Shown: positions 26,189 to 44,570 of the stretch, piece after piece
How the letters are laid out: the number at the start of each line of letters is the position of its first letter
Position numbering within the stretch: position 1 is the stretch's first letter
Assembly (NCBI GenBank): GCA_026392215.1
Contig: JAPLCN010000121.1
Coordinates: forward strand, 1 to 57,171
DNA: 57,171 nucleotides
DNA from: Actinomycetota bacterium
GTDB lineage: Bacteria > Actinomycetota > Humimicrobiia > Humimicrobiales > Humimicrobiaceae
Direction of reading: 5' to 3'
Made by a program: the position numbers and the translations under genes
The notes under the pieces: model-generated
The model's database searches: none
Told to the model about the DNA's origin: nothing
Seen by the model: the letters and a program-made list of their open reading frames with translations, nothing else

Positions 26189-26193
26189 TGTAA

Positions 26194-26260: not shown

Positions 26261-27211
26261 ATGAAGCTTCAAAACTTTGAAATTAAAAATAAAGAAATCA
26301 GAGAAAAATTTACTCAGCTTAAGAAAAAGAACCCTGATTTATTTAAAAACAGATTAAAATTTTCATGGTCAAACTGGGGATTTGGCCAGGAAAGCCTTGA
26401 AGATTCTGTAAAACGCCTAAGTAAATTTGGTGTAAAATTTATTGAGCTGCACGGAAATTTATATGGTAAGGATTTAGGTTATAAGCCTAAGGAAGTAAAT
26501 AAAATATTATCTTCTTATGGAGTAAAAGTAAGTGGAATCTGCGGCATGTATTCAGCAGATAATGATTTATCTTCAAGTAAGCCGTTGATTAGGCAGAATG
26601 CAATTGATTATACTTATAGAAATGTTGAATTTGGCGCAGAAGTCGGGGCTAAATATTTCCTTGTAGTTCCTGCAGCGGTTGGCAGGCCAGTAAAATATGA
26701 TGATATGGAATTTGAGCGTTCTGTTGAAACATTAAAAATTGCTGCAAATGTTTTTGTAAAGACAAAAATAAGGGGTGCTGTTGAACCAATCAGGTCTGCT
26801 GAAACAAGCATTGTACATTCTTTTGAAGATGCAAAAAAATATATTGCAGCTGTTGCAAGCCCTGGTATTGCGCACATAAACGGAGATGTTTATCACATGC
26901 TTGTTGAAGAAAAACATATAGGAGAAGCAATAGTAAATGCAAAAGGCATGCTTACCAATCTTCACATGGCAGATTCAAACAGGTGTGCGCTTGGTGAAGG
27001 GTTTATGGATCTTGACATCATTATCATGGCCCTTTACAGCATTGGTTATAACAATGATGAGCACTGCTTCCTTTCAGCCGAGCCTTTAGGTCCTGGGGGA
27101 GATCCTTATCCCGCCATGTATGGCAAACCGGATAGCGGAAAATTAGATAAGCTTGTTAAGAGCTCTATTGATTATTTTACTCAAAGAGAATCAGAGTTGT
27201 TAAGCTTGTAG
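26261..27211 (+). CDS. Sugar phosphate isomerase/epimerase (xylose-isomerase-like TIM barrel)
   Basis: 316 aa, with SD AAGGGAGG. FIELHG, AVEPIR, HINGDVYHM and HMADSNR are typical AP-endonuclease-2 / xylose-isomerase-like barrel metal motifs. Confidence 0.75.
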   Translation: MKLQNFEIKNKEIREKFTQLKKKNPDLFKNRLKFSWSNWGFGQESLEDSVKRLSKFGVKFIELHGNLYGKDLGYKPKEVNKILSSYGVKVSGICGMYSADNDLSSSKPLIRQNAIDYTYRNVEFGAEVGAKYFLVVPAAVGRPVKYDDMEFERSVETLKIAANVFVKTKIRGAVEPIRSAETSIVHSFEDAKKYIAAVASPGIAHINGDVYHMLVEEKHIGEAIVNAKGMLTNLHMADSNRCALGEGFMDLDIIIMALYSIGYNNDEHCFLSAEPLGPGGDPYPAMYGKPDSGKLDKLVKSSIDYFTQRESELLSL

Positions 27212-27273
27212 TTTTATTTAAAAATTTTTTTAAAAATAAATATAAATATATTTTTAGGTGAAAGGGAACTTTC

Positions 27274-28956: not shown

Positions 28957-29114
28957 ATTCAAATTGCGTATATTTGTATTAAAACGTATTGGAATATATT
29001 GGTAAATGTAAATATTATTTACTGCAACCGGCTGGGTTTTAAACAAATTCTTATCTTTATAGGCTGAACTAAAGGACAATAAATAAAAAATTAAGTCTGA
29101 CTAAATTAAATAGT

Positions 29115-29840
29115 ATGAATAATGAAAAGTATCTGAAATTAAAAGATACAGTTTATGAAGCAAATATGGACCTTGTTAGTAAGGGTCTTGTAATATATAC
29201 ATTTGGCAATGTTTCGCAGATAGACAGAAAAACCGGTATTGTTGCAATAAAACCAAGCGGAGTTGACTACGACAAACTTTCACCTGATGATATAGTGCTT
29301 TTAGATCTTTTGGGAAATATTATTGACAGCCGCTTAAAACCATCCTCTGATACAAAAACACATCTTAAACTTTACAGCGAGTTTCCTGAAATAGGAGCAG
29401 TTGTTCATACTCATTCAAGATATGCAACTGCTTTTGCACAGGCAAAACTACCAGTAAAATGCCTTGGTACAACTCACAGTGATTACTTTTATGGTGATAT
29501 TCCATGCACTGATGTTATAGAAGATGAGATGTTAGTTAAAGATTATGAAGAAGAAACCGGTAATCTTATTGTTCATACTTTTAAGGCTCAAAATATAGAT
29601 TACCATATGATGAAAGCATGTCTTGTTGCCTGTCATGGCCCTTTTACCTGGGGAAAAGATGCAGAAGAAGCCATATTTATCAGTGTAATGCTTGAGGAAA
29701 TTGCAATGCAGAATTATATAACATATTTACTTAATCCTGATATTTCAAGCATTAAAAAAACGCTTATGGATAAGCATTATTTTAGAAAACATGGCAAAAA
29801 TGCTTATTACGGGCAAAAGCATGAAAAACTGTCAAAATAA
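29115..29840 (+). CDS. araD: L-ribulose-5-phosphate 4-epimerase
   Basis: 241 aa. LKDTVYEANMDLVSKGLVIYTFGNVS, IKPSGVDYD, PSSDTKTHLKLY and VVHTHS match the AraD class II aldolase-fold signature. Confidence 0.85.
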   Translation: MNNEKYLKLKDTVYEANMDLVSKGLVIYTFGNVSQIDRKTGIVAIKPSGVDYDKLSPDDIVLLDLLGNIIDSRLKPSSDTKTHLKLYSEFPEIGAVVHTHSRYATAFAQAKLPVKCLGTTHSDYFYGDIPCTDVIEDEMLVKDYEEETGNLIVHTFKAQNIDYHMMKACLVACHGPFTWGKDAEEAIFISVMLEEIAMQNYITYLLNPDISSIKKTLMDKHYFRKHGKNAYYGQKHEKLSK

Positions 29841-29924: not shown

Positions 29925-30923
29925 ATGACATCTAAAGAAATTATATTAAATATACTTTCAAAAAAAGATACACCCAGGTGCGGGATAGCAAATCCGGTAT
30001 CTTCAACAACTGTTAAGCAAATGGAAATGACGAACTCCTTCTTTCCTGAAGCTCACTACGATGCAAAGAAAATGTATGAGCTTGCAAGAGCAAACTACGA
30101 AATTTTAGGATTTGACGGGATAATGCCTGTTTTTTCAGTTGTAATTGAACCCTATGCTTTAGATTGTAAAGTTGACTGGGGAAGGCCTGATATGATGCCG
30201 CAGATTTTAGGCAAATTATGGAAAGGCTATGATGATATAATAATTAAGGAAGATTTTCTTTCAAACCATGCAGTAAAAGCTGTTCTTAAATGTATCTCTA
30301 TGCTTAAAAAAAATTATCCTGGTGTTGCCATAATCGGCAAGGTTTTTGGGCCCTGGACTCTTGGCTACGATTTTTTTGGGGTAGAGGATTTTCTTATTAA
30401 AACCATAACGCAGCCAGAAGAAGTTAAAAGTATCTTAAACAAATTAAGTGAAGTTACTGTTAAATTTGCCAATGCCCAGATTGAGGCCGGCGCAGATGTA
30501 ATTACAGTAGCAGACCATGCTACTAAAGATTTATGCAGCCCTCTGGCTTACAGGGATTTTTTAATTTCAATTCATACAATGCTTGCTAAAGAAATTAAAG
30601 CTAAAGTCATGCTTCATATTTGCGGAGATACTTTAGACAGGATTGAATATATTTCACAAACAAAAGTGGCTTCATTTCATTTTGAATCTAAAGTGGATGC
30701 ATGCAAAGCTGTTAAAATAGCAAATGGCAGAATCAAACTTATAGGAAATATTAACAACCCTACTACACTGCTTTTTAAAAAACCCGCAGACGTAAGACGT
30801 GAAGTCGAGTATGCGATAAAATGCGGTGTAGATATTATAGGTCCGGAATGTGCAGTCCCGCTGACAACACCTCTTGAGAACCTTAAAGAAATTTCTTTGA
30901 CAGTCAGAAACTATAAATATTGA
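29925..30923 (+). CDS. MtaA/MtbA-type (UroD-fold) zinc-dependent methylcobamide methyltransferase
   Basis: 332 aa. LHICGD (H-x-C) plus the downstream GPECAV cysteine match the MtaA Zn triad spacing. UroD-like core VADHATKDLCSPLAYRDF. Confidence 0.75.
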   Translation: MTSKEIILNILSKKDTPRCGIANPVSSTTVKQMEMTNSFFPEAHYDAKKMYELARANYEILGFDGIMPVFSVVIEPYALDCKVDWGRPDMMPQILGKLWKGYDDIIIKEDFLSNHAVKAVLKCISMLKKNYPGVAIIGKVFGPWTLGYDFFGVEDFLIKTITQPEEVKSILNKLSEVTVKFANAQIEAGADVITVADHATKDLCSPLAYRDFLISIHTMLAKEIKAKVMLHICGDTLDRIEYISQTKVASFHFESKVDACKAVKIANGRIKLIGNINNPTTLLFKKPADVRREVEYAIKCGVDIIGPECAVPLTTPLENLKEISLTVRNYKY

Positions 30924-32091: not shown

Positions 32092-33516
32092 ATGGAGCAT
32101 TATAAACCTAAAATCGGACTGGTATTTTTTGCAGCAAGATGGTTTGAAGAAGTAGTTCTTGGTGCAGGAGAGAACTCAAAAGAATTTTCAAGGTTCTTAA
32201 ATAAAGATACGGGCAAAATCAAGGACGCGCTGTCAAAAGAAAATGAAGTCGTAAGCTTTCCTGTTGTTACTTCCATGGGAAAAGCCTGGACAGTCAGTGA
32301 AAAAATTCTTGCACAAAATCTGGACGCAGTAGTATTTTGCTCAATGGTCTGGACGGAAGATGAGTATCTCCTGGCTTTTAAAGATGTTATGAAAATAAAG
32401 CCATCCATCATATGGGGTTTTACACCTTATAAAAATTCTCCTGAAAAAAGCGATATTATGACTTTGTTTAAAAATTCAGGTATTGTGGGAACCGTTCAAG
32501 GATTTAACGTTGTTGTAAAGATGGGAGTAAAACCATTTTATGTTTTTGGAAGCGTTTTAGACCCGGAACCGGTAACTAAAATAAATAAAATTACCAAAGC
32601 AGCCAAAGTATTTAAAGAATTAAAAAAAACAAAGCTTGGTATCCTGCCTTACAGAAATTTTCAGATGATTGTAACTTATGTTGATGAATTCAGACTATAT
32701 TCTCAGATCGGGCCAGTAGTTGAATATATTTCGTGCCTTCAGTTAAAAAATGCAACAGATACAATTCCGGACAGCAAAACGATTGATTATGTTAAAGAAA
32801 TAAAAAGTAAGTTTAAAATAGATTCAAAAATAACCCAGGAAAATTTATTTAAATCTGCAAAAGCAGCTTTGGGATTTGAAAAAATCATATTTGATAATAA
32901 ATTGGACGGCATTGCTTTAAGTGATCTTATCCCTGAACTTCATGAAGTTATGGGGCTGCGCCCCTGCTTATATACAGAAAAACTTGCCAAATCAGAAAAA
33001 GTAGTTGGAAATGAAGGTGATCTTGGCGGGACCACTGCAATGATGATTTTAAGAAAGCTTACCGGCAGTCCAGTCATGTTTACTGAAATATTCAATCTTG
33101 ACTATGAAAAGAATACTATTGGTGCCGGCCATGCCGGCCCGTCAAATTACATGACTGCTCAAAGTGATGATAAAGTTACCATTACTCCTGACTATGAGTT
33201 AATGGATGCAACTTCTGATATCGGTGGAGTATGGATGGAATTTATCGGTAAGCCGGGAAGAGTGACTATTCTTAATTTTATCTGTACCCTGGACAATTTC
33301 CAGATGACAATATTAAATGGGCAGTCTTTAGGCGGCAGTGTCAGATTTGATGGCTATCCTCACTATGCAATAAAAATAGATCCAAAAATGATTGATTTTC
33401 TTAATTCAAATGCTCTTAATGGAACAAGCCATCACTGGGCAGTTGTAAATGGAGATGTTAAAGAAGAGTTGTCTTATCTTGCTGACATGCTTTGTGTAAA
33501 AAAGGTTTTACTTTGA
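32092..33516 (+). CDS. L-fucose / L-arabinose isomerase-like sugar isomerase (second copy)
   Basis: 474 aa, with SD AAAGGAAG. IGLVFFAA...VVFCSMVW and ...GAGHAGP...GTSHHWAVVNGDVKEEL parallel 20239-21630. Confidence 0.65.
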   Translation: MEHYKPKIGLVFFAARWFEEVVLGAGENSKEFSRFLNKDTGKIKDALSKENEVVSFPVVTSMGKAWTVSEKILAQNLDAVVFCSMVWTEDEYLLAFKDVMKIKPSIIWGFTPYKNSPEKSDIMTLFKNSGIVGTVQGFNVVVKMGVKPFYVFGSVLDPEPVTKINKITKAAKVFKELKKTKLGILPYRNFQMIVTYVDEFRLYSQIGPVVEYISCLQLKNATDTIPDSKTIDYVKEIKSKFKIDSKITQENLFKSAKAALGFEKIIFDNKLDGIALSDLIPELHEVMGLRPCLYTEKLAKSEKVVGNEGDLGGTTAMMILRKLTGSPVMFTEIFNLDYEKNTIGAGHAGPSNYMTAQSDDKVTITPDYELMDATSDIGGVWMEFIGKPGRVTILNFICTLDNFQMTILNGQSLGGSVRFDGYPHYAIKIDPKMIDFLNSNALNGTSHHWAVVNGDVKEELSYLADMLCVKKVLL

Positions 33517-33649
33517 TAAATAACTTATGAAAGATGACTTTTAAACAAAATAAAAATAAATAGAAGCAGTTTTAAATTTTAACGTTAGTTTTAGAAATAT
33601 TAAATTTATTAATTATCTGTTTATACTAATAAATAATTAAAAAGCGGAA

Positions 33650-34786
33650 ATGACTCCGAAAGAGAGAATAACTTTGGCATTTCAAAACAGGAAACCTGAC
33701 AGGGTGCCTGTTTCTCCTGAATTATGGGATGTTATTCCCATAAAAGTTTCAGGAAGACCTTTTTATGAATATAGCGCGACTTCTTTCGGAAAATTTCCAT
33801 TATGGAAAGCCCAGATTGATGCTTATAAGTTTTTTGAATGTGAGGCATGGATACCTGTTGAACCGGGTCCGTCGGAAAGACAAAAAGAAATGATTTCTGC
33901 CAAGTCTTATTTTGTTAACCCTGATTTAATCCAGACGGAAGTCACTTATAAAACAAGTAAAGGCAATCTTAAGGAAATTAAGCATTCAGTGTTTGATTAC
34001 GATATGTGGTCTTTGAAGCGCCTGGTAGAAAATCTATTTGAAGACATGCCTAAATATGAAGAATATTTTTTTGAGAATCCTTCAAAGTTGGATTACGAAA
34101 TAATAAATGAAGCATACAAGGAAACTGGTGATTACGGAATTTGTGAAGGTAATGTAGGCAATACCTTTTTTGAGTTTTTAACTCTTGCCAGGGAAGGCGG
34201 AGCAGTTCAGGTGATTTTTGATTTAAATGACAATCCTGATTTTTTTATACCAATCCAAAAAAGATATATTGATTATGTAAGTGAGGTTGCAGAAGAAATT
34301 ATTAAAAACACCCAGGTGGATGGTATTTTTTTAAACTGCGGCAGTTCTGTCTTAACTGTTGTCAGCCCAGAGATTTTTAAAATCTGGGATTTGCCGCTTA
34401 TAAAAAAAATAGGGGGTATCGCTAAAAAACATGGAAAGATTTTTCATTATCACCTTCATGGCAAAGGAAGAGCATTGCTGGGTTATCTTGTTGATGCAGG
34501 CGTAAATATGATGTGTCCACTTGAAAAATCCCCCAAAGGTGATTTTGATTTGAAAGAAGTTAAAGATAAATTTGGGAATAGGCTTGCAGTTAAGGGTAAC
34601 ATAGATCCATTTTTTTTAAACAAAGCAAGTTTTGAAGAGATTGATTTTGAAGTAAAGAAATGTATTGAAGATGCAGGTAAAAATGGCGGCTTTGTTCTGG
34701 CATCAGGTGATGGAGTTTTAAAAGATACTCCGTTTGAGAATATAAGAAAAATGGTTGAAGCATGTAAAAAATATGGAAAATATTGA
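33650..34786 (+). CDS. UroD-superfamily protein (methyltransferase-like; no MtaA Zn triad)
   Basis: 378 aa. N-terminal TPKERITLAFQNRKPDRVPVSPELW is typical of the family. Core SPEIFKIWDLPLIKKI...HYHLHGKG...LKGNIDP...GGFVLASGDG. Confidence 0.7.
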   Translation: MTPKERITLAFQNRKPDRVPVSPELWDVIPIKVSGRPFYEYSATSFGKFPLWKAQIDAYKFFECEAWIPVEPGPSERQKEMISAKSYFVNPDLIQTEVTYKTSKGNLKEIKHSVFDYDMWSLKRLVENLFEDMPKYEEYFFENPSKLDYEIINEAYKETGDYGICEGNVGNTFFEFLTLAREGGAVQVIFDLNDNPDFFIPIQKRYIDYVSEVAEEIIKNTQVDGIFLNCGSSVLTVVSPEIFKIWDLPLIKKIGGIAKKHGKIFHYHLHGKGRALLGYLVDAGVNMMCPLEKSPKGDFDLKEVKDKFGNRLAVKGNIDPFFLNKASFEEIDFEVKKCIEDAGKNGGFVLASGDGVLKDTPFENIRKMVEACKKYGKY

Positions 34787-34960
34787 AGATTCAGATAATC
34801 TTAATAATTTTAAAAATTAATAAATATTTAAAGGTTATTTTTTAAGATCAGAAACAAATAATTAAATAACTTAATTTATAAAAAATAAAATTAACAAAAA
34901 AGGAGGAGAAAATTAATTAAGGTTGGAGTTTATTAAATTAAAGCAAAAGAGAGGTAAAGA

Positions 34961-36388
34961 ATGAGATTAAATTTAATAAAAGTTATTGCTCTTTTTGCTG
35001 TCCTGGGTCTCTTATTAACACTGGGGTTTGGATGCAAAAGTAAAACCACAGAAACAACAGCTGCACAAAGCACGGCTGCTGAAACTACAGCAGCTGCCGA
35101 AACTACAGCTGCAGAGACAACCAAGGCTGCAACGGAAACAACATCCGGCGAACCTGTTAAGCTTGTATTCTGGTGGTGGGGGGAGCAGGAAGCACCGGGA
35201 CTTGAAAAATGGTTGAAAGAAACTGTTGATTTATATCAGAAGGCACATCCGAATGTTACAATTGAAACTGTTCTTCAATCTACAGAAACATTGGTTTCAG
35301 CATTTAAATCTGCAGCTGCAGCACAGCAGGGTCCTGACATACAATATTTCTGGGGCGGCATATTCACAATCGAAGATGCATGGGCAGGAAGTATTGTCCC
35401 AATTTCAGATTACATACCTGCTGATGAGCTAAAGCATTATTACACAAGTTATGAACAGCAGTTTGATGGAAAAACCTGGGGTGCAGTATGGTATACAGTT
35501 CCAAACCCGATTGTTTACAACAAGCAAATCTTTAAAGATGCAGGCCTTGATCCTGAAAATTTCCCAAAAACATGGGATGAATTTCTTGCAGCATGTAAAG
35601 CTATCCAGGCTAAAGGTATTGTTCCATTCAGTGTTGGAAATAAAGAAGGATTTGCAGGCGCATGGCTTGCTTCATATATTGGAATCCAGAATCTTGACAG
35701 CCCTGCAGATTTGATGGCTCCCGCAATAGGCAAAGCAAAATATACTGATGAGAAATATGCAGCATGGTGGAAGAGACTTGCTGAACTTCGGGATAACAAG
35801 TATATAAATAAGGATATCAACTCGCTTGAATTTTATCAGGGCCAGGATAACTTTAAAAAAGGAAATGCAGGCTTTACTTTAACCGTTGGTTCAGGTGCTG
35901 TTGATTTTGTTAAAACCATGGGCACAGATAAAGTAGGAATTGCAACAATGCCAGTCTGGGGTACCGGAAAATATGCTGGACCACTTCAGTTGAGCTCTCA
36001 AACAGTTGGCATTACTTCCTGGTCAAAATATCCAAAAGAATCTGCTGATTTTATAATGTTCATGCATACTCCTGACAGGGTAAATGCAATGTATAAAATG
36101 AGCGGAGCATTTCCTGCTGATGACAGGTTTGATCCGAGTCTTCTTTCAACAGATCAGGAAAAGAAAATTGCCAAACTTGCATCAGAGAATGTTTCTCCAT
36201 GGGGAGAAAATTATATTCCCTCTCAATTTGATGAGCAGGCATATTACTTTGGAGTTCAGGATTTCTTTAATGGCAAAACTCCGGAAGATATGGCTAAAAA
36301 ATGCCAGGAAATTATAGAGAAGTGGCAGAAAGAGCAGCCTGATTCAGTTAAGAATTTTGAAAAATGGTATGCTTCTTTTACAAAATAA
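34961..36388 (+). CDS. CUT1-family sugar ABC substrate-binding lipoprotein
   Basis: 475 aa. Lipobox LGFGC (Cys25) and a long Thr/Ala/Glu linker. MalE-like fold (VKLVFWWWG, GPDIQYFWGG). Confidence 0.85.
   Translation: MRLNLIKVIALFAVLGLLLTLGFGCKSKTTETTAAQSTAAETTAAAETTAAETTKAATETTSGEPVKLVFWWWGEQEAPGLEKWLKETVDLYQKAHPNVTIETVLQSTETLVSAFKSAAAAQQGPDIQYFWGGIFTIEDAWAGSIVPISDYIPADELKHYYTSYEQQFDGKTWGAVWYTVPNPIVYNKQIFKDAGLDPENFPKTWDEFLAACKAIQAKGIVPFSVGNKEGFAGAWLASYIGIQNLDSPADLMAPAIGKAKYTDEKYAAWWKRLAELRDNKYINKDINSLEFYQGQDNFKKGNAGFTLTVGSGAVDFVKTMGTDKVGIATMPVWGTGKYAGPLQLSSQTVGITSWSKYPKESADFIMFMHTPDRVNAMYKMSGAFPADDRFDPSLLSTDQEKKIAKLASENVSPWGENYIPSQFDEQAYYFGVQDFFNGKTPEDMAKKCQEIIEKWQKEQPDSVKNFEKWYASFTK
35040..35150 (+). 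repeat. Imperfect tandem repeats encoding the (E)TTAA linker of the lipoprotein
   Basis: GAAACTACAGCAGCTGCC / GAAACTACAGCTGCAGAG / ACAACCAAGGCTGCAACG units encode TTETTAAQSTAAETTAAAETTAAETTKAATETT. A shorter analogue lies at 17770-17826 in the other SBP gene. Confidence 0.5.
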
Positions 36389-36402
36389 GCAATGCAATAT
36401 GT

Positions 36403-36436
36403 AAAGCAAATATAGTTGCAGAACCATATTTGCTTT
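36403..36436 (+). terminator. Hairpin directly after the SBP gene (partial terminator or stabiliser)
   Basis: Perfect 11-bp stem: AAAGCAAATAT (36403-36413) pairs with ATATTTGCTTT (36426-36436), with a 12-nt loop. The T-tract is weak. Confidence 0.55.
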
Positions 36437-36475
36437 GATTTAAAGTAATTTTAATAGATTTAAAGATACAATCCA

Positions 36476-36588
36476 GGCGGTCTGGCTAAAGGGTTAAAAT
36501 TGATTTTAAAAGTTAATTAAGTAATTTTTTATAAGTTACAAAATTAATTCGGGAAAATTAATAAAAACAATTAATCAGCCAGGCCGCC
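36476..36588. repeat. GC-rich 12-nt terminal inverted repeat enclosing about 89 nt of AT-rich sequence (structured RNA or MITE-like element)
   Basis: GGCGGTCTGGCT (36476-36487) pairs with AGCCAGGCCGCC (36577-36588): 11 Watson-Crick pairs plus one G-U as RNA. It sits in an unusual 400-nt gap between the SBP and permease genes. Confidence 0.4.
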
Positions 36589-36788
36589 AAAAAAATATTT
36601 TTAAAGCATTAAGATAATAAAAAAATGAAATTTGAAATAATTTCCTGATTCTGGAAGTAATTTTATAAGTTATAAACAGCATTTTTAAACTTAAAGAACA
36701 ATTATAATTATTAATATATATTAAGAAATATAAACAATAATCATTATTAATATCATTAATTAAAAACAAGTTAGAAAAACAAATATTT

Positions 36789-37661
36789 ATGAAAACTAAA
36801 AGAAGAAACATAATAGAAATAATCCTTTTTCTGCTGCCGGCTTTGATAATAATAGGATTTGTCTTCTTTTTCCCGATAATAAGGGTAATCCAGTACAGCT
36901 TTGACAGGGTTAATCCCAGGAAATTATCTTTTATAGGCCTGACAAACTATAAAATCCTGTTTACCGATGATGTTTTTCTTTCCGGCATAAAGAATAATTT
37001 TATCCTGCTTGTTGCCGTTCCGATAATAATATTTTTATCAGTTTTTTTTGCTATCCTGCTTTATGAAAAAATGGGTGGCTGGAAGTTTTACAGGTTTGTG
37101 CTTTTTTTGCCTTACATACTTGCTATTCCTGTAGTGGGCGTAGTTTTCAGCTATATTTTTCAATTAAACGGACTGCTGAATTTTCTTCTGGAAAAGGTGG
37201 GGCTTAAATTTCTGATGGCAGACTGGCTCGGTTCTTCGAACTGGGCATTATGGACTGTAATGTTTGTAATTATATGGAAGGAGCTTGGTTTTGGGATTGT
37301 CCTGGTTTTTGCAAGGCTGATGAGCGTTCCCAAGGATCTGTATGAAGCTGCTGAAATTGACGGAGCTAACTGGGTTCAGAAGCACATTCATGTAACTATA
37401 CCCCAAACAAGGAATGTTGTTTCTTTCCTGACAGTTATCACGATTATTACAATGCTGTCATGGGTATTTAATTACGTATATGTCATGACTCTTGGAGGTC
37501 CTGGCACTTCAACGATGGTTGCGGAATATTATATTTATCAGACAGCTTTCAGGTACCAGAATATGGGCCTAGCTTCTGCAGCTTCAGTAATACTTTTCGT
37601 GATTACTTTTATTTTTGTAATTATTCAAACAAGGGTTAGAGGAAGAGAAGAAGTAGAATAA
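36789..37661 (+). CDS. CUT1 sugar ABC permease (MalF/UgpA-like)
   Basis: 290 aa, six TM helices. EAA-loop region LYEAAEIDGANWVQKHIHVTIPQT. Confidence 0.85.
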   Translation: MKTKRRNIIEIILFLLPALIIIGFVFFFPIIRVIQYSFDRVNPRKLSFIGLTNYKILFTDDVFLSGIKNNFILLVAVPIIIFLSVFFAILLYEKMGGWKFYRFVLFLPYILAIPVVGVVFSYIFQLNGLLNFLLEKVGLKFLMADWLGSSNWALWTVMFVIIWKELGFGIVLVFARLMSVPKDLYEAAEIDGANWVQKHIHVTIPQTRNVVSFLTVITIITMLSWVFNYVYVMTLGGPGTSTMVAEYYIYQTAFRYQNMGLASAASVILFVITFIFVIIQTRVRGREEVE

Positions 37662-38519
37662 ATGGAAAAAGTAAAACAAAAAGAATATAAAGTTAGAAAA
37701 AATTATTTTGCTTTTTTTGGCAGGCAGCTTTTACTTATAATCCTTACAATTATTTCTTTGTACCCGGTGTTCTTCATGCTGATAACTGCAATAAAATCAA
37801 AGGAAGAATATGTATTTAATAAATTCGGTTTCCCTAAAGCGCTTGCCTTGAATAATTTTTTTGAAGTATTTATAGGTAAAAATTTTGGCCAGTGGTTTGT
37901 AAATTCAATAGTGCTTAGCATTGGATCAGTTATTCTCTCTCTTGTTCTGGCTATTCTTGCTTCATACGCACTTGCAAGATACCAGTTCAAGATAAGGGAT
38001 ACTATTTTAAATTTTATCATTTCTCTCATGGTTATTCCTCCCGTCATAATGGTTGTCCCATTATTTGTATTTATGTCAAAAATTAAGCTGATAAACTCAC
38101 TTCCCGGGGTTATATTGATTTATGCAGGGCTGACTTTACCCTTCTCAATATATCTCTTAACTACTTTTTTCAGATCCATACCACAGGCAATAATGGACAG
38201 CTCTTATATTGACGGATGCTCATCACTCAGGACTTTAACCAGTATTGTTATGCCGCTTTCAAAGCCTCCTATCATTACTCTTATAGTTGTGAATTCCTTA
38301 TGGGTCTGGAATGAACTTATGATTGCTCTTATTTTTCTGCAGAAAGATGAGCTTAAAACACTTATGGTGGGCATAACTGTTTTCAAATCAAGATATAACA
38401 TAAATATACCGTTAACAATGATGGGCCTTGTTGTTATTACAATCCCTATGGTTGCACTTTATCTATTCGGCCAGAAATATTTTGTTCAGGGGCTTGTTTC
38501 CGGGTCTTTAAAAGAATAA
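37662..38519 (+). CDS. CUT1 sugar ABC permease (MalG/UgpE-like)
   Basis: 285 aa. Its start abuts the upstream stop. EAA-loop region IMDSSYIDGCSSLRTLTSIVMPLSKP and C-terminal FGQKYFVQGLVSGSLKE. Confidence 0.85.
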   Translation: MEKVKQKEYKVRKNYFAFFGRQLLLIILTIISLYPVFFMLITAIKSKEEYVFNKFGFPKALALNNFFEVFIGKNFGQWFVNSIVLSIGSVILSLVLAILASYALARYQFKIRDTILNFIISLMVIPPVIMVVPLFVFMSKIKLINSLPGVILIYAGLTLPFSIYLLTTFFRSIPQAIMDSSYIDGCSSLRTLTSIVMPLSKPPIITLIVVNSLWVWNELMIALIFLQKDELKTLMVGITVFKSRYNINIPLTMMGLVVITIPMVALYLFGQKYFVQGLVSGSLKE

Positions 38520-38677
38520 AGAAGGAAAATTAAAGAGTAATAGTAAAATGTAGCTTCACTTATTAGTGTTTAAATGAATTATACGGGAATTTAATTTAAC
38601 TTGATATCATTTGGTTATTTTGAAATTTAATAAAATTAATTTAAATTATAATAATAGTTTATTCTTAAGGGAAAATT

Positions 38678-39850
38678 TTGGAAAATTCAAAAGAATTGAT
38701 GATAAAGACACTAAATCTTCAAAAAACAGCCAGAATTCCTGTTGCACCACACTGGTGGGGTATTTACAAATATGAAGCTCTCGGCCTTGATTATAAGAAA
38801 GATGCCTGGAAAGAAGGAGAAAAATTATCTGAAGTTTATGTAAAATTTTATGAAAAATTTAAACCTGACTGGTTTCATCTTCATATTGGAACTCCAAAAT
38901 ATTTTAAAGACTGTGAAATTATAAATCAAAATGGAAAAAGCTACTTAAAAATAGCTGATAAATTCAGAGATTTAAAAAAAGAAGATAAATATTTTTCTTC
39001 AAATTCATCTGAAGATGAGGAAATAATAGATTTTCCTGATTATCTTCTCGGTTCCAGATGCTTTAAACCAAAAGTTGACTTGTCAAATATAAAAAAGATT
39101 GATGATTTTATAAAAAGATATATTCATATGAGTGCTCAGGAAATAATAGAGATGGGATATACCGACCATATTCCTCAAATTGTTTCCAGATATGGCAAGG
39201 ATGTTTTTATAGCTGTTCATATTCCTTCAGCTATTTGTGAAATTTTTGATCCTACTACAGGCTATCTTGGCTTTGAACAGGGTCTTATGTCTTTTTATGA
39301 TTATCCTAAAGAGATGAAATATTTTCTTGAAAGATGTTATGAAGAACAGCTTGAATGGGCAAAAGCATATGCAAAAGCCGGGGTGCATTCTTTTATTATT
39401 TCCGAAAGTTTTATTTCCCCCGATCTGGCAAATCCTGAAATCTATAGGAAATTTATGAAATCCATTCATTCGGAATATTTTATGGAAATAAAGAATTATG
39501 GCTTAATTCCAATTTGCATGTTTTGGGGAGATGCTGTGCCATTGCTTGATGATTATACTGAAACTAACGTTATGGCAATTATGTTTGAAGAAAGCAAGAA
39601 GGGATTTAATTTGGACATAAAGAAAATAAGAGATGCAATAGGGAGTAAAGTATGTGTTTTTGGAAATCTTGATTCTATTTATTTGTTAAGAGAAGGAAGC
39701 ACTGAGGAAATTAAGAATGAAGTAATAAAGCAGGCAAAAGGTGCAAGATATAATTTTATAATTTCCAACGGAAGTCCTGTAACGCCGGATACACCGGAAA
39801 AAAATCTGAAAAGTTTAATTAACTCTGGAAAGGATCTCAAATGGCAATAA
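38678..39850 (+). CDS. UroD-superfamily protein (divergent; no MtaA Zn triad)
   Basis: 390 aa. TTG start 5 nt after AAGGGA. N-terminal SKELMIKTLNLQKTARIPVAPHWWG and core SPDLANPEIYRKFMKSI...GNLDS...NFIISNGSPV. Confidence 0.6.
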   Translation: MENSKELMIKTLNLQKTARIPVAPHWWGIYKYEALGLDYKKDAWKEGEKLSEVYVKFYEKFKPDWFHLHIGTPKYFKDCEIINQNGKSYLKIADKFRDLKKEDKYFSSNSSEDEEIIDFPDYLLGSRCFKPKVDLSNIKKIDDFIKRYIHMSAQEIIEMGYTDHIPQIVSRYGKDVFIAVHIPSAICEIFDPTTGYLGFEQGLMSFYDYPKEMKYFLERCYEEQLEWAKAYAKAGVHSFIISESFISPDLANPEIYRKFMKSIHSEYFMEIKNYGLIPICMFWGDAVPLLDDYTETNVMAIMFEESKKGFNLDIKKIRDAIGSKVCVFGNLDSIYLLREGSTEEIKNEVIKQAKGARYNFIISNGSPVTPDTPEKNLKSLINSGKDLKWQ

Positions 39851-40950
39851 CCTCTAAAGAAAGAATGCAGATAGCAATGGATCATAAAGAACCGGACAGG
39901 GTGCCCTATCAGGCAACTTTTGTACCCGAAATGGATAAATTGCTAAGGCAAAAATATGCTAAGGAGATTGAGAGGATAAAGGGAAAGACTACTGAAAAAT
40001 ACCAGGGAATGACTGAACTGGATATATTGTTTGAACATGACATGCTTCTTTTAACTTATGGAATTTCTACCGGATATTACAGGAATACCCAGGAGGATAC
40101 CTACATGGATGAATGGGGAATAACATGGAGAAAAATACCTTATAAGACACCTAATGGCATAGGGCATTATACTGAAATAATTAAGTTTCCACTGGCAGAT
40201 GATGATGCAATAAACTCATATGTTCCTCCTGATCCGGACAACGAAGACATGACTTATGCAGAGGAAGTAATCAGATATTACGGCAAAGAAAAATATATAT
40301 GCGGAATAATAGACTGCTCTGTATTTGAAGCTCTTAAATATTTAAGAGGAATAACGCAAAGCCTTATTGATATTGTAGCAAACAAAGATCTGGCACATAA
40401 AATTATGGACATGTCAGTTGATTATCATTTAAAGCTTGGTTTTAAACTGATTGAAAGAGGAGTTGATTTGTTATGGCTTGCAGATGATCTGGGCGGTGAA
40501 CATAAGCTTTTAATATCCCCGAAAACTTTCAGGGAAATGGTAAAACCAAAGTTAGGCTACATGATAGGAGAGTTAAAAAAGAAAAACAGGAACATTAAAA
40601 TTGCTTTTCATAGCGATGGCTATATAGAGCCGCTAATTGATGATCTGATTGATGTCGGGGTAGATTTGCTTAATCCTATCCAGCCAGAATCCATGGATCC
40701 GGCTTTCATTAAAAAAAGATTCGGCAGCAGGATTTCTTTATGGGCAACAGTTTCCACCCAGAAAACTCTGCCTTTCGGAACTCCACAGGATGTTGAAAAT
40801 GAGATAAAGGAAAGAATTAAGACCTGCGCGCCGGGCGGAGGATTTCTAATAGCCCCTACTCATAATATTCAGCTGGATACGTCTTTTGAAAATATTGAAG
40901 CATTTTACAGTTCAATTAAAAAATATGGCAGTTATCCGGTGAAGCTGTAA
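39841..40950 (+). CDS. UroD-superfamily protein (FHSDG subtype)
   Basis: 369 aa. Overlaps the upstream gene by 10 nt (ATGGCAATAA). TSKERMQIAMDHKEPDRVPYQ, SPKTFREMVKPKL, IAFHSDGYI, LLNPIQP and GGGFLIAPTHNI. Confidence 0.7.
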   Translation: MAITSKERMQIAMDHKEPDRVPYQATFVPEMDKLLRQKYAKEIERIKGKTTEKYQGMTELDILFEHDMLLLTYGISTGYYRNTQEDTYMDEWGITWRKIPYKTPNGIGHYTEIIKFPLADDDAINSYVPPDPDNEDMTYAEEVIRYYGKEKYICGIIDCSVFEALKYLRGITQSLIDIVANKDLAHKIMDMSVDYHLKLGFKLIERGVDLLWLADDLGGEHKLLISPKTFREMVKPKLGYMIGELKKKNRNIKIAFHSDGYIEPLIDDLIDVGVDLLNPIQPESMDPAFIKKRFGSRISLWATVSTQKTLPFGTPQDVENEIKERIKTCAPGGGFLIAPTHNIQLDTSFENIEAFYSSIKKYGSYPVKL

Positions 40951-41122
40951 TTTTAAATAAAAATAAATTCGATAACAAAATGATTTTTTAACAATAAAAC
41001 CGACGTAATTTTTGAACTGACATAGCTTTATTAAAGCCGGCTAATCAGCAGTTATTAATAACGAAAAAAGATAAAAAGAATACTAAAATTCAAGACAATA
41101 TATTAGAAAGTGAGAATCTTAA

Positions 41123-41773
41123 ATGGCTATTGAAGAAATAAAAAAAGAACTTTATAACAATGTTCTTTCAGGGGATTTTGAATTAACCAAAGAACTTGCA
41201 TTAAAGGCAATTTCAGAAGGCGTTAACCCGCTTGAAGCCATTAATTCCTATCTGGTTCCTGCAATAGAGCTTGTTGGTGAAAAATTCGGCAGGAAAGAAT
41301 ATTTTCTTCCTGATCTGATGAGAAGTGCTAATGCAATGAAAAGCGCCCTTGATATTTTCGAAACGGAAATTCATAAAAGCGGTATTGAAAGGAAGTCCCA
41401 GGGCAAAATAGTTATAGGAACTGTAAAAGGAGATATCCATGAGATCGGCAAGTCAATTGTTGCCGCTCTTCTTTCTGCTAAGGGATTTGATGTTATTGAT
41501 GTTGGAATTGATGTATGTTCTGATATATTTATTAATAAGGTAATTGAAAAAAAAGCTGATATTCTTGCCATGTCTGCCCTTCTGCCGATAACAATGCCTT
41601 ATCAGGCGGCAGTGATTGAAGAGCTTAAAAAAAGAGGTATTAGAGATAAGGTTAAAGTAATGGTTGGCGGTGCTCCCGTTACACAGGAGCATGCAGATAA
41701 AATTGGTGCTGATGGCTATGCTGATAATGCAGTAGATGCTGTTAAGCTGGCAGAAAGCCTGATGAAGCAATAA
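41123..41773 (+). CDS. Cobalamin-binding corrinoid protein (MtbC/MttC/MtgC-like)
   Basis: 216 aa. An N-terminal helical B12-binding-2 cap, then GDIHEIG (DxHxxG), MSALLPITM (SxL) and VMVGGAPV (GG) in a Rossmann domain. Confidence 0.9.
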   Translation: MAIEEIKKELYNNVLSGDFELTKELALKAISEGVNPLEAINSYLVPAIELVGEKFGRKEYFLPDLMRSANAMKSALDIFETEIHKSGIERKSQGKIVIGTVKGDIHEIGKSIVAALLSAKGFDVIDVGIDVCSDIFINKVIEKKADILAMSALLPITMPYQAAVIEELKKRGIRDKVKVMVGGAPVTQEHADKIGADGYADNAVDAVKLAESLMKQ

Positions 41774-41831
41774 AAGTTTAATGGTTTTCAATATATTAAA
41801 ATAATTTTTTTATAAAATTAGGGAGGAAAGA

Positions 41832-43307
41832 ATGCCTATCAGAGGACTTAAAGGCGGAATGCTTAAATTCTTATCAGAGGGTGATTTAAAAGCAATTCAT
41901 ATTGCAACAGTTGAAATATTAAGTGAAATTGGTGTTAAGATGGAATACGAGCCAGCTCTTGAAATTTTCAAGGATTTTGGCGCTGAAGTTGATTTTAAGA
42001 ATAAGATTGTTAAAATCGGCGAAGATTTGTTAAGGAAAGGGCTTTCAAGTGCTCCTTCTGCTTTTACCCTTCATGGAAAAACTGAAGATACTGATATAAA
42101 AGTTGATCCTGAAAGGGTATATACAATTGGAGGTTCATCCGCACTTAACGTTTTTGATCTTGATGGAAATTACAGACCAGCTGTTTTTGATGATTTAATT
42201 AAACTTACTCTTCTTCAGAATAAAATGGAAAATCTGCATATAATGCATGCAATTGTTATTCCTTCTGATATCGAGGAATATGGCGTAGACAGATTATTAT
42301 TTGCCGGGACATTTCCATATACTTCCAGAAATTATTATTCCCAATCTCAAACCGGTGCGGATGGAGTTGGAGAACAGTTAAAAATGGCTGCAGTTTTTCA
42401 GGGAAGCGAAGATGCTGTCAGGAAAAATCCGATGTTTACAGAAGTAGTTTGTATGGTTAGCCCTCTTAAGCATGAAAAGGTAAACAGTGAAGTAATAATC
42501 GAGTGTGCAAAAAATAATATTCCTGTTTATATTGAGGTGGATGCAATGCCGGGAGGAACTACTCCGGCGCCAATAGCAGGATGCCTTGTAGAACAAAATG
42601 CAAATATTCTGGCCGGGATTGTGCTGGCTCAACTTATCAAACCTGGCACCTCATGTATTTATTCCATTGCATCAGGACTTATGGATATGACAAGCGGAGG
42701 TTACTCTGGAGCAGCTCCTGAAACCAATTTGCTTCATTGCTGCACTGCCCAAGTTGCCCATTATTATAATCTGCCATTTCAGGGCGGAACAGGAATAGAT
42801 GCAAAAATTTCTGATGCACAGGCAGGCTATGAAAGAGCCTTGCAGGTTTTAAGCAATGCGCTTGCAGGAACAAACTTTATCCATCTTTCATTTGGCATGA
42901 TGGAAATGATGATGCTGGCAAGTTATGAGCAGGTAGTAATTGATAATGAAATCATGGGGGCAACTTATAGAATGCTAAAAGGCGTTGAGGTAAATGACTC
43001 TGCGCTGTCAGTTGACTTGCTAAGAAAAACAGGCCATGGGGGTCACTTCCTTAATTATAAGGAAACTGCAGAATATGTAAGAAGAAATAACTGGATTCCA
43101 AAAATTACCAATAGAGACTCGTGGAGTACATGGCAGGCAATGGGAGCGAAAAGCATGAGAGAACTTGCCAATGAGGAAGCAAAAAGAATACTTCAGGAAA
43201 ATACTGAACCTGTAATTTCAAAAGAGCAAACTGAAGAAATTTTAAAAATGGCAAAATCCTATCACAAACAAGCCCAGGAAAGACTAAGAAAACAGGAAGG
43301 CAAATAA
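41832..43307 (+). CDS. MttB-superfamily (trimethylamine methyltransferase family) protein, non-pyrrolysine type
   Basis: 491-aa uninterrupted ORF, with SD AGGGAGGAAAG. LSEGDLKAIHIATVEILSEIGV N-terminus and family-like core (VSPL, EVDAMPGGTTPAP, GAAPETNLL, QGGTGIDAK, ASYEQVVIDNEI). No in-frame TAG. Confidence 0.9.
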   Translation: MPIRGLKGGMLKFLSEGDLKAIHIATVEILSEIGVKMEYEPALEIFKDFGAEVDFKNKIVKIGEDLLRKGLSSAPSAFTLHGKTEDTDIKVDPERVYTIGGSSALNVFDLDGNYRPAVFDDLIKLTLLQNKMENLHIMHAIVIPSDIEEYGVDRLLFAGTFPYTSRNYYSQSQTGADGVGEQLKMAAVFQGSEDAVRKNPMFTEVVCMVSPLKHEKVNSEVIIECAKNNIPVYIEVDAMPGGTTPAPIAGCLVEQNANILAGIVLAQLIKPGTSCIYSIASGLMDMTSGGYSGAAPETNLLHCCTAQVAHYYNLPFQGGTGIDAKISDAQAGYERALQVLSNALAGTNFIHLSFGMMEMMMLASYEQVVIDNEIMGATYRMLKGVEVNDSALSVDLLRKTGHGGHFLNYKETAEYVRRNNWIPKITNRDSWSTWQAMGAKSMRELANEEAKRILQENTEPVISKEQTEEILKMAKSYHKQAQERLRKQEGK

Positions 43308-43313
43308 TTTATA

Positions 43314-44570
43314 ATGACAGATGAAAAAAGTTCAGGATTTTTTGAAGGGAGATTTTACAATAAAAAAGCCCTTAAACTAAAAATTCTGGATTTAATAAGA
43401 AACAAAGGCCTGATTACCAAGCAGCAAATTGCAAAAGAGCTTGGGATAAATATTACTACTGTAAGTGATCTGGTAAACCAGTTTAAAGATAAAAACAGAA
43501 TAATTAAAGAAACAGGTGATGGCAGTTCTTCCGGCGGCAGAAAACCTAAAGTTTACACAATAAATAGTGAGCTGGGTTATATAGTTGGAATTGATGTCGG
43601 GGGCACAAACACGCGAGGGATTCTAACAGATTTATCCGGTAGTTTAATTCATTACCTTAAAGTTAAAACAAAAGCCCGGGAAGGCAAGGATGCAGTACTT
43701 GCGAGGGTTATTTCAGTTGTAAATGAACTTATAACTCTGGCAAAAATTCCGCGGGAAAAGCTTTTTGGAATCGGCATGTCAATTTCGGGTATTATTAATT
43801 CGTATGAAGGAATAAGTATTTTTTGCCCGAATATTCCCGGCTGGGAAAATTTCCCGATAAAACAAATTATGGAAAAAGAATTTAATATACCGGTTTGCAT
43901 TGATGACAGTGTAAGGTGCGCGGCAGTTGCTGAAAAAAGGTTTGGTATTGCAAAAGACCACGATAACTTTATTTTTATCAGTATCGGCAAAGGAATTGGA
44001 ATGGGTGCTTTTATTGATGGCAAAATATACCGGGGAAGCATGGGGCTTGCCGGAGAGCTTGGCCATATTACTGTTTCCGAAGACGGGCCGCTCTGCAACT
44101 GCGGAAATAAAGGCTGCCTTGAAGCTATAGCTTCTGGTCCCGGGATACTGAAAAGGGCGCAGGAAGGAATAAAAAACGGCATAGTTACTTCTATTTCAAA
44201 AGAAATAAATAATAATTTTGAAAAACTTTCAGTAGAAATTATTTCAAGGGCGGCAAATGAGGGGGATAAGTTTGCTTATTATCTGATAAACAGAACCGGT
44301 GAGTATATTGGAATTGCAATTGCAGCAGCATTAAATCTTTTCGGCTCTGATCTTGTTGTATTGTGGGGAGGCATACTTGAGTGTGGGGATATAATTCTGG
44401 ATGCCATTAAAAGAACAGTAAAAATGAGAGCCCTTGAATTTATTTCAAAAAGAGTCAGGATTGAAAAAACCAGCATTGGAGACAACATAGCAGCTCTGGG
44501 TGCTGCTCAAACATTTATTGATATGCTTTACAGTGAATCAGATTATAATATATTGCTTAAAAAGTTTTAA
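43314..44570 (+). CDS. ROK-family transcriptional regulator
   Basis: 418 aa. N-terminal winged HTH (ILDLIRNKGLITKQQIAKELGINITTVSDLVNQF). ROK sugar-kinase-like core with GIDVGGTN and the Zn motif GHITVSEDGPLCNCGNKGCLEA. Confidence 0.85.
   Translation: MTDEKSSGFFEGRFYNKKALKLKILDLIRNKGLITKQQIAKELGINITTVSDLVNQFKDKNRIIKETGDGSSSGGRKPKVYTINSELGYIVGIDVGGTNTRGILTDLSGSLIHYLKVKTKAREGKDAVLARVISVVNELITLAKIPREKLFGIGMSISGIINSYEGISIFCPNIPGWENFPIKQIMEKEFNIPVCIDDSVRCAAVAEKRFGIAKDHDNFIFISIGKGIGMGAFIDGKIYRGSMGLAGELGHITVSEDGPLCNCGNKGCLEAIASGPGILKRAQEGIKNGIVTSISKEINNNFEKLSVEIISRAANEGDKFAYYLINRTGEYIGIAIAAALNLFGSDLVVLWGGILECGDIILDAIKRTVKMRALEFISKRVRIEKTSIGDNIAALGAAQTFIDMLYSESDYNILLKKF

Follow-up and report, generated by a model that had tools for sequence, protein, structure and literature searches.

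A ten-gene cluster around an MttB-superfamily protein

The 57-kb stretch of DNA analysed here (the window) is AT-rich (~33% GC), carries gyrB and gyrA at its start and holds every open reading frame (ORF) taken as a gene on its + strand. The closest relatives of several of its proteins come from metagenome-assembled genomes labelled Actinomycetota / Candidatus Humimicrobiaceae. We studied the segment 32092-44570, in which genes for methyl-transfer proteins (an MttB-superfamily methyltransferase, a corrinoid protein and three UroD-fold proteins) lie among those for a sugar-type ATP-binding cassette (ABC) transporter, an isomerase and a ROK-family regulator. A sequence-only reading of the window had delineated ten ORFs in this segment; all were present at those coordinates on the + strand, and profile searches with Pfam and NCBIfam bore out the families proposed for the UroD-like, solute-binding, permease, corrinoid, MttB and ROK proteins. 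The features are as follows:

32092..33516, +, aldose-ketose isomerase of the SftI/FucI/AraA superfamily ('Iso2'), which heads the predicted operon; sub-cutoff SftI match
33650..34786, +, UroD-fold protein 1; PF01208 85 bits; H/H/D at the MtaA zinc-ligand positions
34961..36388, +, CUT1 solute-binding protein (SBP), probable lipoprotein; SBP_bac_1 and SBP_bac_8, 102 bits
36476..36603, +, long-range hairpin; 12-bp GC-rich stem GGCGGTCTGGCT / AGCCAGGCCGCC, ~90 nt enclosed, then A7TAT5; seen by eye
36789..37661, +, CUT1 permease 1 (UgpA/MalF-like); BPD_transp_1; NCBIfam UgpA 116 bits
37662..38519, +, CUT1 permease 2 (GlcU/UgpE/MalG-like); BPD_transp_1
38678..39850, +, UroD-fold protein 2; PF01208 91 bits; PDB MtaA 4ay7 50.8 bits
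39841..40950, +, UroD-fold protein 3; PF01208; H/D/H at the zinc positions
41123..41773, +, corrinoid (B12-binding) protein of 216 aa, presumed methyl carrier; PF02310 and PF02607
41832..43307, +, non-pyrrolysine MttB-superfamily methyltransferase of 491 aa; MTTB PF06253 327.5 bits
43314..44570, +, ROK-family regulator with an N-terminal winged helix (NagC/Mlc-like); ROK 225 bits

The MttB protein matched PF06253 well above the cutoff of 25 bits, residues 11-471 aligning with model positions 31-489 of 500. Its ORF proved uninterrupted over 491 codons, as had been read from the letters, with no internal stop and no pyrrolysine (Pyl) codon. The score against TIGR02369, the equivalog of the Pyl-type trimethylamine enzyme, was 399.3 bits, under the cutoff of 525, and a Gly aligned with the Pyl position (the X of 'GSXSDAK' in PDB 7xcl), which places the protein in the non-pyrrolysine branch. 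Its best solved relative was MtgB (256 bits in the PDB), and 7xcl, a methanogen MttB, gave 233 bits. The protein belongs to an uncharacterised clade (43-93% identity) that spans about nine phyla: a sister genome has a member with 93% identity, and those from Anaerolineae, Spirochaetota, Planctomycetota, Armatimonadota, Lentisphaerota, Poribacteria, 'Hebobacteria' and Clostridia share 43-63% with it.

In MtgB of Desulfitobacterium, Y97 and F356 make cation-pi contacts with glycine betaine, while R312 and H348 bind its carboxylate. Every characterised member without Pyl (MtgB, MtpB, MtcB, MtyB and the phosphocholine enzyme MthB) has kept R312; the substrates of these enzymes are all quaternary amines, and the authors connect the retention of R312 with the acidic group that all known substrates have in common (PMC13080624, 2026). 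When the pocket residues were mapped through a HMMER alignment to the MtgB structure sequence (pairwise ~35% identity), the window protein was found to have S102, Q317, L352 and M360 at the positions of Y97, R312, H348 and F356, and so to lack, with Gln317, the Arg shared by the characterised quaternary-amine enzymes. The S/Q/L/M signature was exact in 60 of 68 aligned clade sequences. In the R312 column 63 of the 68 had Gln and none had Arg, and the extra MttB paralogues present in clade loci also had no Arg there. The assignment of this column is reliable because the motifs that flank it (P-x-x-G-G ... D-x-K-x-x-D-A-Q-A-G-Y-E) are strongly conserved; those of Y97, H348 and F356 are less certain. 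Judged from these alignments, the pocket of the clade is distinct, is conserved among its members and lacks the Arg that binds the acidic group. Because the equivalent of Arg312 is replaced by Gln, its substrate is likely uncharged. Glycine betaine or another acidic betaine is an unlikely substrate, the MtgB pocket residues being replaced across the clade, and to that extent the sequence-only reading is supported.

The adjacent corrinoid protein had both the cap and the Rossmann B12-binding domain above the Pfam cutoffs, and the GDIHEIG (DxHxxG), SAL (SxL) and GG motifs noted by the sequence-only reading were found again by direct reading of the translation. Its best NCBIfam match was the MtgC model (217 bits, cutoff 310), and with TIGR02370 it scored 211.1 bits, just below the cutoff of 215.3.

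The transporter genes encode a complete set of CUT1 membrane and binding components, namely an SBP_bac_1-type binding protein and two MalF/MalG-type permeases. The signal sequence of the SBP ends in ...LGFGC and is followed by a T/A/E-rich linker; the nearest PDB relatives are oligosaccharide binders, and homologues are labelled raffinose/melibiose-type binders in the source databases. Permease 1 had orthologues with 54-64% identity across phyla. The locus has no gene for the ABC ATPase of this system, as is commonly the case with CUT1 transporters. In the regulator, HTH_24 lies at residues 20-63 and ROK at 91-401; it scored 206 bits with the NagC and 167 bits with the Mlc model, both under the equivalog cutoffs. 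The CUT1 SBP, the MalF/MalG-like permeases and the ROK protein had thus been correctly recognised, their domains being SBP_bac_1, BPD_transp_1 and ROK with a helix-turn-helix.

The isomerase had been called 'FucI-like', which stands at the level of the superfamily. No Pfam match rose above threshold (AraA_central and Fucose_iso_C were sub-threshold) and no PDB sequence matched, while the NCBIfam model of the sulfoquinovose isomerase SftI matched over nearly the full length at 99 bits (E 2e-28, sub-cutoff) and that of L-arabinose isomerase weakly. A paralogue at 20239-21630, which does match the Pfam fucose-isomerase domains, aligned with it at 53 bits.

Gene spacing is tight in much of the cluster. 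The genes for UroD 2 and UroD 3 share 10 nt at 39841-39850, an overlap already reported and seen again in the sequence; this suggests that they are translationally coupled. Permease 2 starts on the base that follows the stop of permease 1, and MttB and ROK are 6 nt apart. A scan for intrinsic terminators called none in the three larger gaps (36389-36788, 38520-38677 and 40951-41122). Because of these junctions and the lack of a called terminator, gene order argues that 32092-44570 is most likely an inducible operon, probably under its own ROK regulator. The hairpin at 36476-36603, not called by the terminator scan, sits in the unusually long 400-nt gap between SBP and permease 1 and may be an mRNA stabiliser, a processing element or a partial terminator. 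An Rfam scan of the window, cobalamin riboswitch included, returned two tRNAs only. A comparison of 10-mers among intergenic regions yielded AT-rich noise only, and no ROK operator was identified by it.

Linkage of the MttB clade to sugar-type genes

The neighbourhood of the clade was surveyed in 61 genome loci with a flank of up to 10 kb and in 12 further loci fetched by protein look-up. The 61 loci were compared with all window proteins and their ORFs were clustered; ORF calling in high-GC loci was home-made, overlaps being resolved by score. Orthologues of the window SBP and permeases were found next to an MttB orthologue in Actinomycetota (L001, L006, L064, L073), Anaerolineae (L013/L065, L057) and Spirochaetota (L030, L032, L034, L035, L044). 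Their identity to the window proteins was 47-50% for the SBP and 52-66% for the permeases, compared with only 21-28% for unrelated CUT1 SBPs in the same loci. ROK orthologues (45-89% identity) accompanied MttB in Actinomycetota and Anaerolineae. The reciprocal search, started from SBP homologues on long contigs, found two or three MttB genes beside each of the three (P0197, P0179 and P0134), together with UroD-like genes and sugar-type enzymes, and corrinoid genes near P0197 and P0134.

Within Actinomycetota, the order isomerase-UroD-UroD-UroD-corrinoid-MttB-ROK recurred in L005, L006, L064 and L073 (MttB 77-79% identity), each Actinomycetota locus having three to five UroD-fold paralogues. 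In L005 and L006 the cluster likewise opens with an Iso2 orthologue (73-75% identity), and the L073 orthologue aligned at 830 bits. In L062, the relative with 93% MttB identity, synteny with the window reaches the trp operon and there are five UroD genes.

Neighbour counts were taken over the 47 loci whose flank reached 5 kb or more, which represent about nine phyla:

At least one sugar-type neighbour, 40/47 loci
DegT/DnrJ/EryC1-type or class-III aminotransferase, 30/47 loci; six phyla, 0/4 Actinomycetota loci
UroD-like gene, 24/47 loci; several subfamilies
Xylose-isomerase-like TIM barrel (Hyi/IolO-like), 21/47 loci; resembles hydroxypyruvate or 2-oxo-tetronate isomerase, or the keto-sugar epimerase IolO
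CUT1 transporter, 14/47 loci
Corrinoid-protein gene, 13/47 loci; all Actinomycetota and Anaerolineae
SSF symporter, 4/47 loci; all Planctomycetota

Aminotransferases and keto-sugar isomerase-like TIM barrels were the commonest partners of the clade and, outside Actinomycetota, nearly always among its neighbours. Where a corrinoid gene was present, it lay immediately 5' of MttB. The typical order was DegT-TIM-MttB in Planctomycetota and Armatimonadota, LacI-DegT-TIM-UroD-SBP-permease-permease-MttB-MttB in Spirochaetota, and ROK, SBP-permease-permease-corrinoid-MttB-UroD-DUF4432-aminotransferase-TIM in Anaerolineae. A Firmicutes locus, L067, read LacI-DegT-TIM-MttB-SBP-permease-permease-UroD-ROK, with an SftI-like isomerase nearby. 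No betaine-type transporter was seen among the annotated recurrent neighbour families (clusters 22-25, of three loci each, carry no annotation).

Chance juxtaposition of MttB and sugar genes was therefore rejected, since orthologous SBP, permeases and ROK adjoin MttB in three phyla, the reciprocal search succeeded in three cases of three and 40 of 47 loci have sugar-type neighbours. By this conservation of gene order, the methyl-transfer and sugar-type genes form one functional unit, and the linkage on which the sequence-only reading had been built withstood comparison between genomes.

Two further observations were made in the surveyed loci. L006 (12816-16600), L030, L032, L034, L044 and L070-L073 have two or three divergent MttB paralogues by the same transporter, sometimes with a second corrinoid protein; multiple paralogues per locus would fit stepwise removal of several methyl groups. 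In addition, a protein of ~1050 aa recurs by the MttB-clade gene in at least three phyla (L069, 4453-7605; L012, L024-L027, L036, L053, L061), with a DegT aminotransferase alongside in some loci. It had no Pfam or NCBIfam match and may be a new glycoside hydrolase or a binding protein for the same substrate.

UroD-superfamily proteins and other genes of the window

All three UroD-fold genes named by the sequence-only reading gave products that matched PF01208, with 83-91 bits and mainly over the C-terminal half. With the MtaA/CmuA subfamily models they scored 53-75 bits (cutoffs 235-244), and they do not carry the zinc triad. By these profiles, UroD 1-3 belong to the URO-D Pfam superfamily only and are very remote from any characterised enzyme. 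The UroD 1 subfamily also occurs in Actinomycetota and in one Anaerolineae locus, that of UroD 2 in Anaerolineae loci.

Upstream of the cluster, two further members of the superfamily flank a pentose-type catabolic operon:

18774..20180, +, cryptic fifth UroD-superfamily protein ('unk468'); hhalign 95.7%, AlphaFold2 (AF2) model
20239..29840, +, upstream pentose-type catabolic operon, by family matches, comprising the next eight entries
20239-21630, +, SftI/FucI-like isomerase, the second in the window; Pfam fucose-isomerase domains
21829-22887, +, LacI
22943-23962, +, aldo-keto reductase with a C-terminal 4Fe-4S dicluster domain
24018-24941, +, TTE1925-type mutarotase
24953-26188, +, 411-aa protein with no assigned family
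26261-27211, +, keto-sugar epimerase-like TIM barrel
27274-28956, +, ribulokinase AraB; 724 bits (cutoff 428)
29115-29840, +, L-ribulose-5-phosphate 4-epimerase AraD; 344 bits (cutoff 257)
29925..30923, +, MtaA/CmuA-family methylcobamide methyltransferase ('UroD0'); NF004889 253.1 bits (cutoff 244)

UroD0 differs from UroD 1-3 in that it passes an MtaA/CmuA cutoff; with TIGR01463 it reached 230.5 bits, just short of 235.4. It aligned over its full length with Methanosarcina mazei MtaA (PDB 4ay7; 154.7 bits), and its zinc triad, H-x-C ... C, is intact, LHICGD and GPECAV aligning with the MtaA zinc motifs. Its gene begins 85 nt 3' of araD, in the araB/araD operon, 1.2 kb upstream of 32092-44570, from which a toxin-antitoxin pair separates it. 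This pair, an RHH (CopG/HicB-like) antitoxin and a PIN-domain toxin at 30997-31777, stands between UroD0 and the isomerase that heads the operon; L062 has a HicA-type module downstream of the cluster in its place. No counterpart of UroD0 was found near MttB in the other loci.

Because UroD0 passes the MtaA/CmuA cutoff and keeps the zinc triad, the window does hold a candidate methyltransferase II (MT-II): UroD0 would be the best candidate for unloading the methyl-corrinoid. The statement of the sequence-only reading that the window lacks both a RamA-type activase and a pterin-binding MT-II held for the scanned + strand ORFs of at least 100 aa in the 57 kb, among which neither a RamA/RACE activase nor a pterin-binding methyltransferase was found, but it had overlooked the MtaA-type candidate at 29925-30923. 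The partial ORF at the end of the window is LacI-like by its N-terminal sequence. A 671-aa ORF upstream of the L003 cluster, considered as an activase, was rejected as DUF3604/PHP-like.

The product of 18774..20180 had no Pfam, NCBIfam or PDB sequence match, and its family, with more than 3600 homologues, is labelled 'hypothetical proteins'. Profile comparison with the UroD set (hhalign) gave a probability of 95.7%, and the AF2 model (pLDDT 85) has a fold that matches UroD, MtaA and MetE; an invariant, Cys-rich NCYGCCEP motif lies where MtaA has its zinc motif. As far as profile and model tell, it is a very divergent UroD-superfamily member. The gene is the last of a CUT2 sugar ABC operon (12910-18741). 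Elsewhere members of the family follow directly after a URO-D gene and adjoin CUT2 sugar ABC transporters, and no gene for a corrinoid protein is close by.

The pentose-type operon may be part of the same pathway as the cluster, to which it is adjacent. The 411-aa protein at 24953-26188 is not UroD-like and has no family in Pfam, NCBIfam or PDB, and the fusion of an aldo-keto reductase with a 4Fe-4S dicluster domain at 22943-23962 is an unusual pairing for a sugar operon. A candidate operator at ~21700-21760, 5' of the second LacI gene, is formed by an imperfect palindrome (ACCAGTTGCAGTAA ... TTACTGTAACTGGT) that lies over a promoter-like TTGACC ... TATAAT. Farther away, 7220-12849 encodes an SDR, a four-carbon acid sugar kinase (SBD_N/NBD_C), a PdxA-like dehydrogenase, a class II aldolase, a cyclase and a cupin, a sugar-acid-type cluster that resembles tetronate (threonate/erythronate) catabolic genes. 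At 50753-51489, trpF (PRA isomerase) of the trp operon is in two ORFs (50753-51055 and 51055-51489), possibly through a frameshift, a pseudogene or a sequencing error; its L062 counterpart is one 305-aa product.

Proposed substrate, rival explanations and known systems

We propose, with a probability of about 0.5, that the 32092-44570 operon serves to import a methylated, uncharged compound resembling a carbohydrate and to demethylate it, an N-linked methyl group being favoured. In the pathway that we infer from the families, motifs, synteny and pocket divergence described above, the lipoprotein SBP and the two CUT1 permeases would import the compound, with an ATPase supplied in trans. MttB would act as methyltransferase I (MT-I), using the methyl group of the substrate to methylate the Co(I) of the 216-aa corrinoid protein encoded beside it. 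The methyl-Co(III) would then be unloaded to an acceptor, perhaps a thiol or tetrahydrofolate, by an enzyme of the UroD/MtaA fold, with UroD0 as the best candidate, while UroD 1-3 would strip additional methyl groups or work on the skeleton of the sugar. The SftI/FucI-like isomerase would finally convert the demethylated product for central metabolism, possibly via the neighbouring isomerase, AraB and AraD. In an amino-sugar variant, demethylation would precede transamination to the keto sugar and isomerisation.

Most likely, by analogy, the methyl group is N-linked and carried by an N-methylated amino sugar, aminocyclitol or amino-polyol, since every characterised MttB N-demethylates and the clade adjoins aminotransferases in other phyla. 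More tentatively, we extend the proposal to the whole MttB clade of about nine phyla, which would demethylate an uncharged carbohydrate-type compound brought in by dedicated CUT1 or SSF uptake, its skeleton being transaminated or isomerised into central metabolism.

Several observations weigh against this proposal. We know of no abundant natural N-methyl amino sugar that would explain so wide a distribution. Neither the window nor any Actinomycetota locus has an aminotransferase (0/4, also L064 and L073), so that the case for an N-methyl group comes from other phyla. An adjacent corrinoid gene is restricted to the 13 Actinomycetota or Anaerolineae loci counted above, and the 57 kb have neither a reductive activase nor a pterin-binding methyltransferase. 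UroD 2 is without any zinc ligand (M/W/S at the three positions), and pairs of UroD and unk468 genes beside sugar ABC transporters had no B12-binding gene within 8 kb (L074, L075). The mapping of residues to MtgB was made at ~35% pairwise identity, though its flanks anchor the R312 column, and co-transcription of 32092-44570 is a prediction from gene layout. Finally, O- or S-methyl chemistry by UroD proteins is a live rival, because the window lineage has isomerases and three to five UroD genes and no aminotransferase.

The rival that survives best, although we regard it as unlikely, is anaerobic O-demethylation of imported O-methyl sugars or cyclitols (2-O-methyl-fucose, 2-O-methyl-xylose, methyl-arabinose, pinitol), the UroD-fold proteins acting as ether-cleaving MT-I that load the corrinoid protein and the freed sugar then being isomerised and phosphorylated. 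The number of UroD-fold paralogues in Actinomycetota and the genes for isomerase, AraB, AraD and mutarotase next door would suit it, as would the existence of O-demethylases, OdmB and VdmB, in the UroD superfamily (PMC10418091). Anaerobic carbohydrate O-demethylation would also fill an open niche, because the only carbohydrate demethylation retrieved from the literature, the coverage of which was incomplete, is the aerobic P450 route (PMC6292453). This explanation, however, leaves MttB, the best conserved element and one not known to use O-methyl groups, without a role, and the aminotransferases of 30 loci unaccounted for. On chemical reasoning, the leaving groups of sugar alkyl methyl ethers are far worse than those of the aryl methyl ethers used by known O-demethylases, from which, as from any characterised enzyme, UroD 1-3 are very far. 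O-methyl sugars had been the example offered by the sequence-only reading; we found no positive evidence for them, and the aminotransferases, the TIM barrels (21/47) and the N-methyl chemistry of MttB favour an N-methyl group.

It is improbable, in our view, that the UroD-fold proteins, and possibly the MttB-clade protein where no corrinoid gene is adjacent, are sugar-modifying TIM barrels (decarboxylases or metal-dependent transferases), the corrinoid protein serving the MttB step only or another process. The 34 of 47 MttB-clade loci without an adjacent corrinoid gene would be explained in this way, and so would the missing zinc ligands of UroD 2 and the non-canonical ones of UroD 1 and UroD 3. 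Because UroD and unk468 pairs occur by CUT2 transporters without a B12-binding gene, some UroD paralogues may indeed do corrinoid-independent chemistry on sugars. Against the wider claim, the corrinoid gene, wherever an Actinomycetota or Anaerolineae locus has one, lies directly upstream of MttB, UroD0 has an intact zinc triad and a score above the MtaA/CmuA cutoff, and MttB-family enzymes are reported to pair with corrinoid partners in aerobic marine bacteria (PMC12478193).

Quite improbable is also an ordinary quaternary-amine demethylase, made of MttB and the corrinoid protein, amid unrelated sugar genes, with CUT1 importing a plain oligosaccharide. Such an enzyme would be in line with the substrates of all characterised non-Pyl MttB proteins (PMC13080624), with MtgC as the top NCBIfam match of the corrinoid protein and with the raffinose/melibiose-type labels of SBP homologues. 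Yet the Arg312 equivalent is missing from the whole clade, the MtgC and MttB equivalog cutoffs were not reached, no betaine-type transporter was seen among the annotated neighbours, and orthologous SBP, permeases and MttB are adjacent in three phyla and in the reciprocal test. An S-methylated substrate, such as a 5-methylthio-pentose demethylated by a zinc-dependent MtaA/MtsA-type enzyme before a pentose isomerase-kinase-epimerase route, is highly improbable: an MtaA-type gene does lie directly 3' of araB/araD, and MtaA-like bacterial clusters have been proposed for methyl-sulfur/methyl-selenium metabolism (PMC10418091), but neither MttB nor the aminotransferases of other phyla would have a role and UroD0 has no counterpart near MttB elsewhere.

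Demethylation of an uncharged, carbohydrate-like compound by MttB, the reading that we prefer, was compared with systems already described. The cluster shares with MtgB/MtgC/MtgA of Desulfitobacterium hafniense and with MtpB, MtcB, MtyB and MthB (Eubacterium limosum) a Pyl-free MttB TIM barrel, an adjacent small corrinoid protein and, presumably, a Co(I)/methyl-Co(III) relay. It differs from them in the pocket (Y97 to S, R312 to Q, H348 to L, F356 to M, the shared Arg being missing clade-wide), in having no nearby pterin-binding methyltransferase of the MtgA/MtqA type and no activase, in its CUT1 sugar-type ABC transporter instead of a betaine carrier, and in its neighbours, namely enzymes for sugars or amino sugars and regulators of the ROK or LacI type. 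With methanogen MttB/MttC/MtbA it has in common the superfamily (233 bits to 7xcl) and an available UroD-fold unloader of the MtaA/MtbA type (29925-30923), whereas the Gly at the Pyl position, the TIGR02369 score (399, under 525) and a bacterial host with no known coenzyme M set it apart.

The characterised corrinoid enzymes of the UroD superfamily are coenzyme M methylases and O-, S- and halogen-demethylases (PMC10418091). The four-component O-demethylases of acetogens and Desulfitobacterium (a UroD-fold MT-I, a corrinoid protein, an MT-II and an ATP-dependent activating enzyme) also have UroD-fold genes by a corrinoid gene, and catabolic demethylation in an anaerobe would be the common role. 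Their known substrates are aryl methyl ethers, however; the window adds MttB, its UroD 1-3 are only remotely similar, and its scanned ORFs include neither a tetrahydrofolate-methylating MT-II nor an activating enzyme. The type 1 mlp clusters of anaerobic bacteria (Kountz and Balskus, bioRxiv 2023, PMC10418091) are similar in having several MtaA-like UroD paralogues, one corrinoid protein, an unassigned substrate and no tetrahydrofolate methyltransferase. Unlike the window, they carry a Ram/RACE activase, and they were proposed for methyl-sulfur/methyl-selenium compounds; the words MttB, sugar, carbohydrate and ABC transporter never occur in the main text of that paper. P450 demethylation of 6-O-methyl-galactose (PMC6292453) likewise opens a sugar to catabolism by removing its methyl group, but it is aerobic and oxidative, releases formaldehyde and involves unrelated proteins.

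Judged by its components, the system would resemble the three-component corrinoid methyltransferase systems, its novelty lying in the clade, the predicted substrate class and the cross-phylum cluster architecture. The sequence-only reading knew of no described pathway of this kind. Our literature search, though incomplete in coverage, likewise found none, nor any paper that connects sugar ABC loci, methylated sugars or cyclitols with MttB, UroD or corrinoid proteins.

In metagenomic studies, a non-Pyl MttB gene is taken to signal the demethylation of quaternary amines such as betaine, choline and carnitine (PMC10805028). The distinct pocket and sugar context would invalidate this reading in many Actinomycetota, Chloroflexota, Planctomycetota, Armatimonadota and Spirochaetota. 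The cluster also yields directly testable proteins, the SBP for its ligand and MttB with the corrinoid protein for activity. If the proposal is true, this would be the first substrate class of the MttB superfamily beyond trimethylamine and acidic quaternary amines and the first corrinoid-dependent route joining sugar catabolism to methylotrophy, and several new UroD-fold families, the Cys-rich cryptic one included, would be additional sugar-associated methyl-transfer enzymes. With a methylated sugar or amino sugar as the substrate, methyl-blocked carbohydrates would be opened independently of oxygen, for which the only described route is the aerobic P450, and anaerobic one-carbon metabolism in sediments would have a new source of methyl groups.

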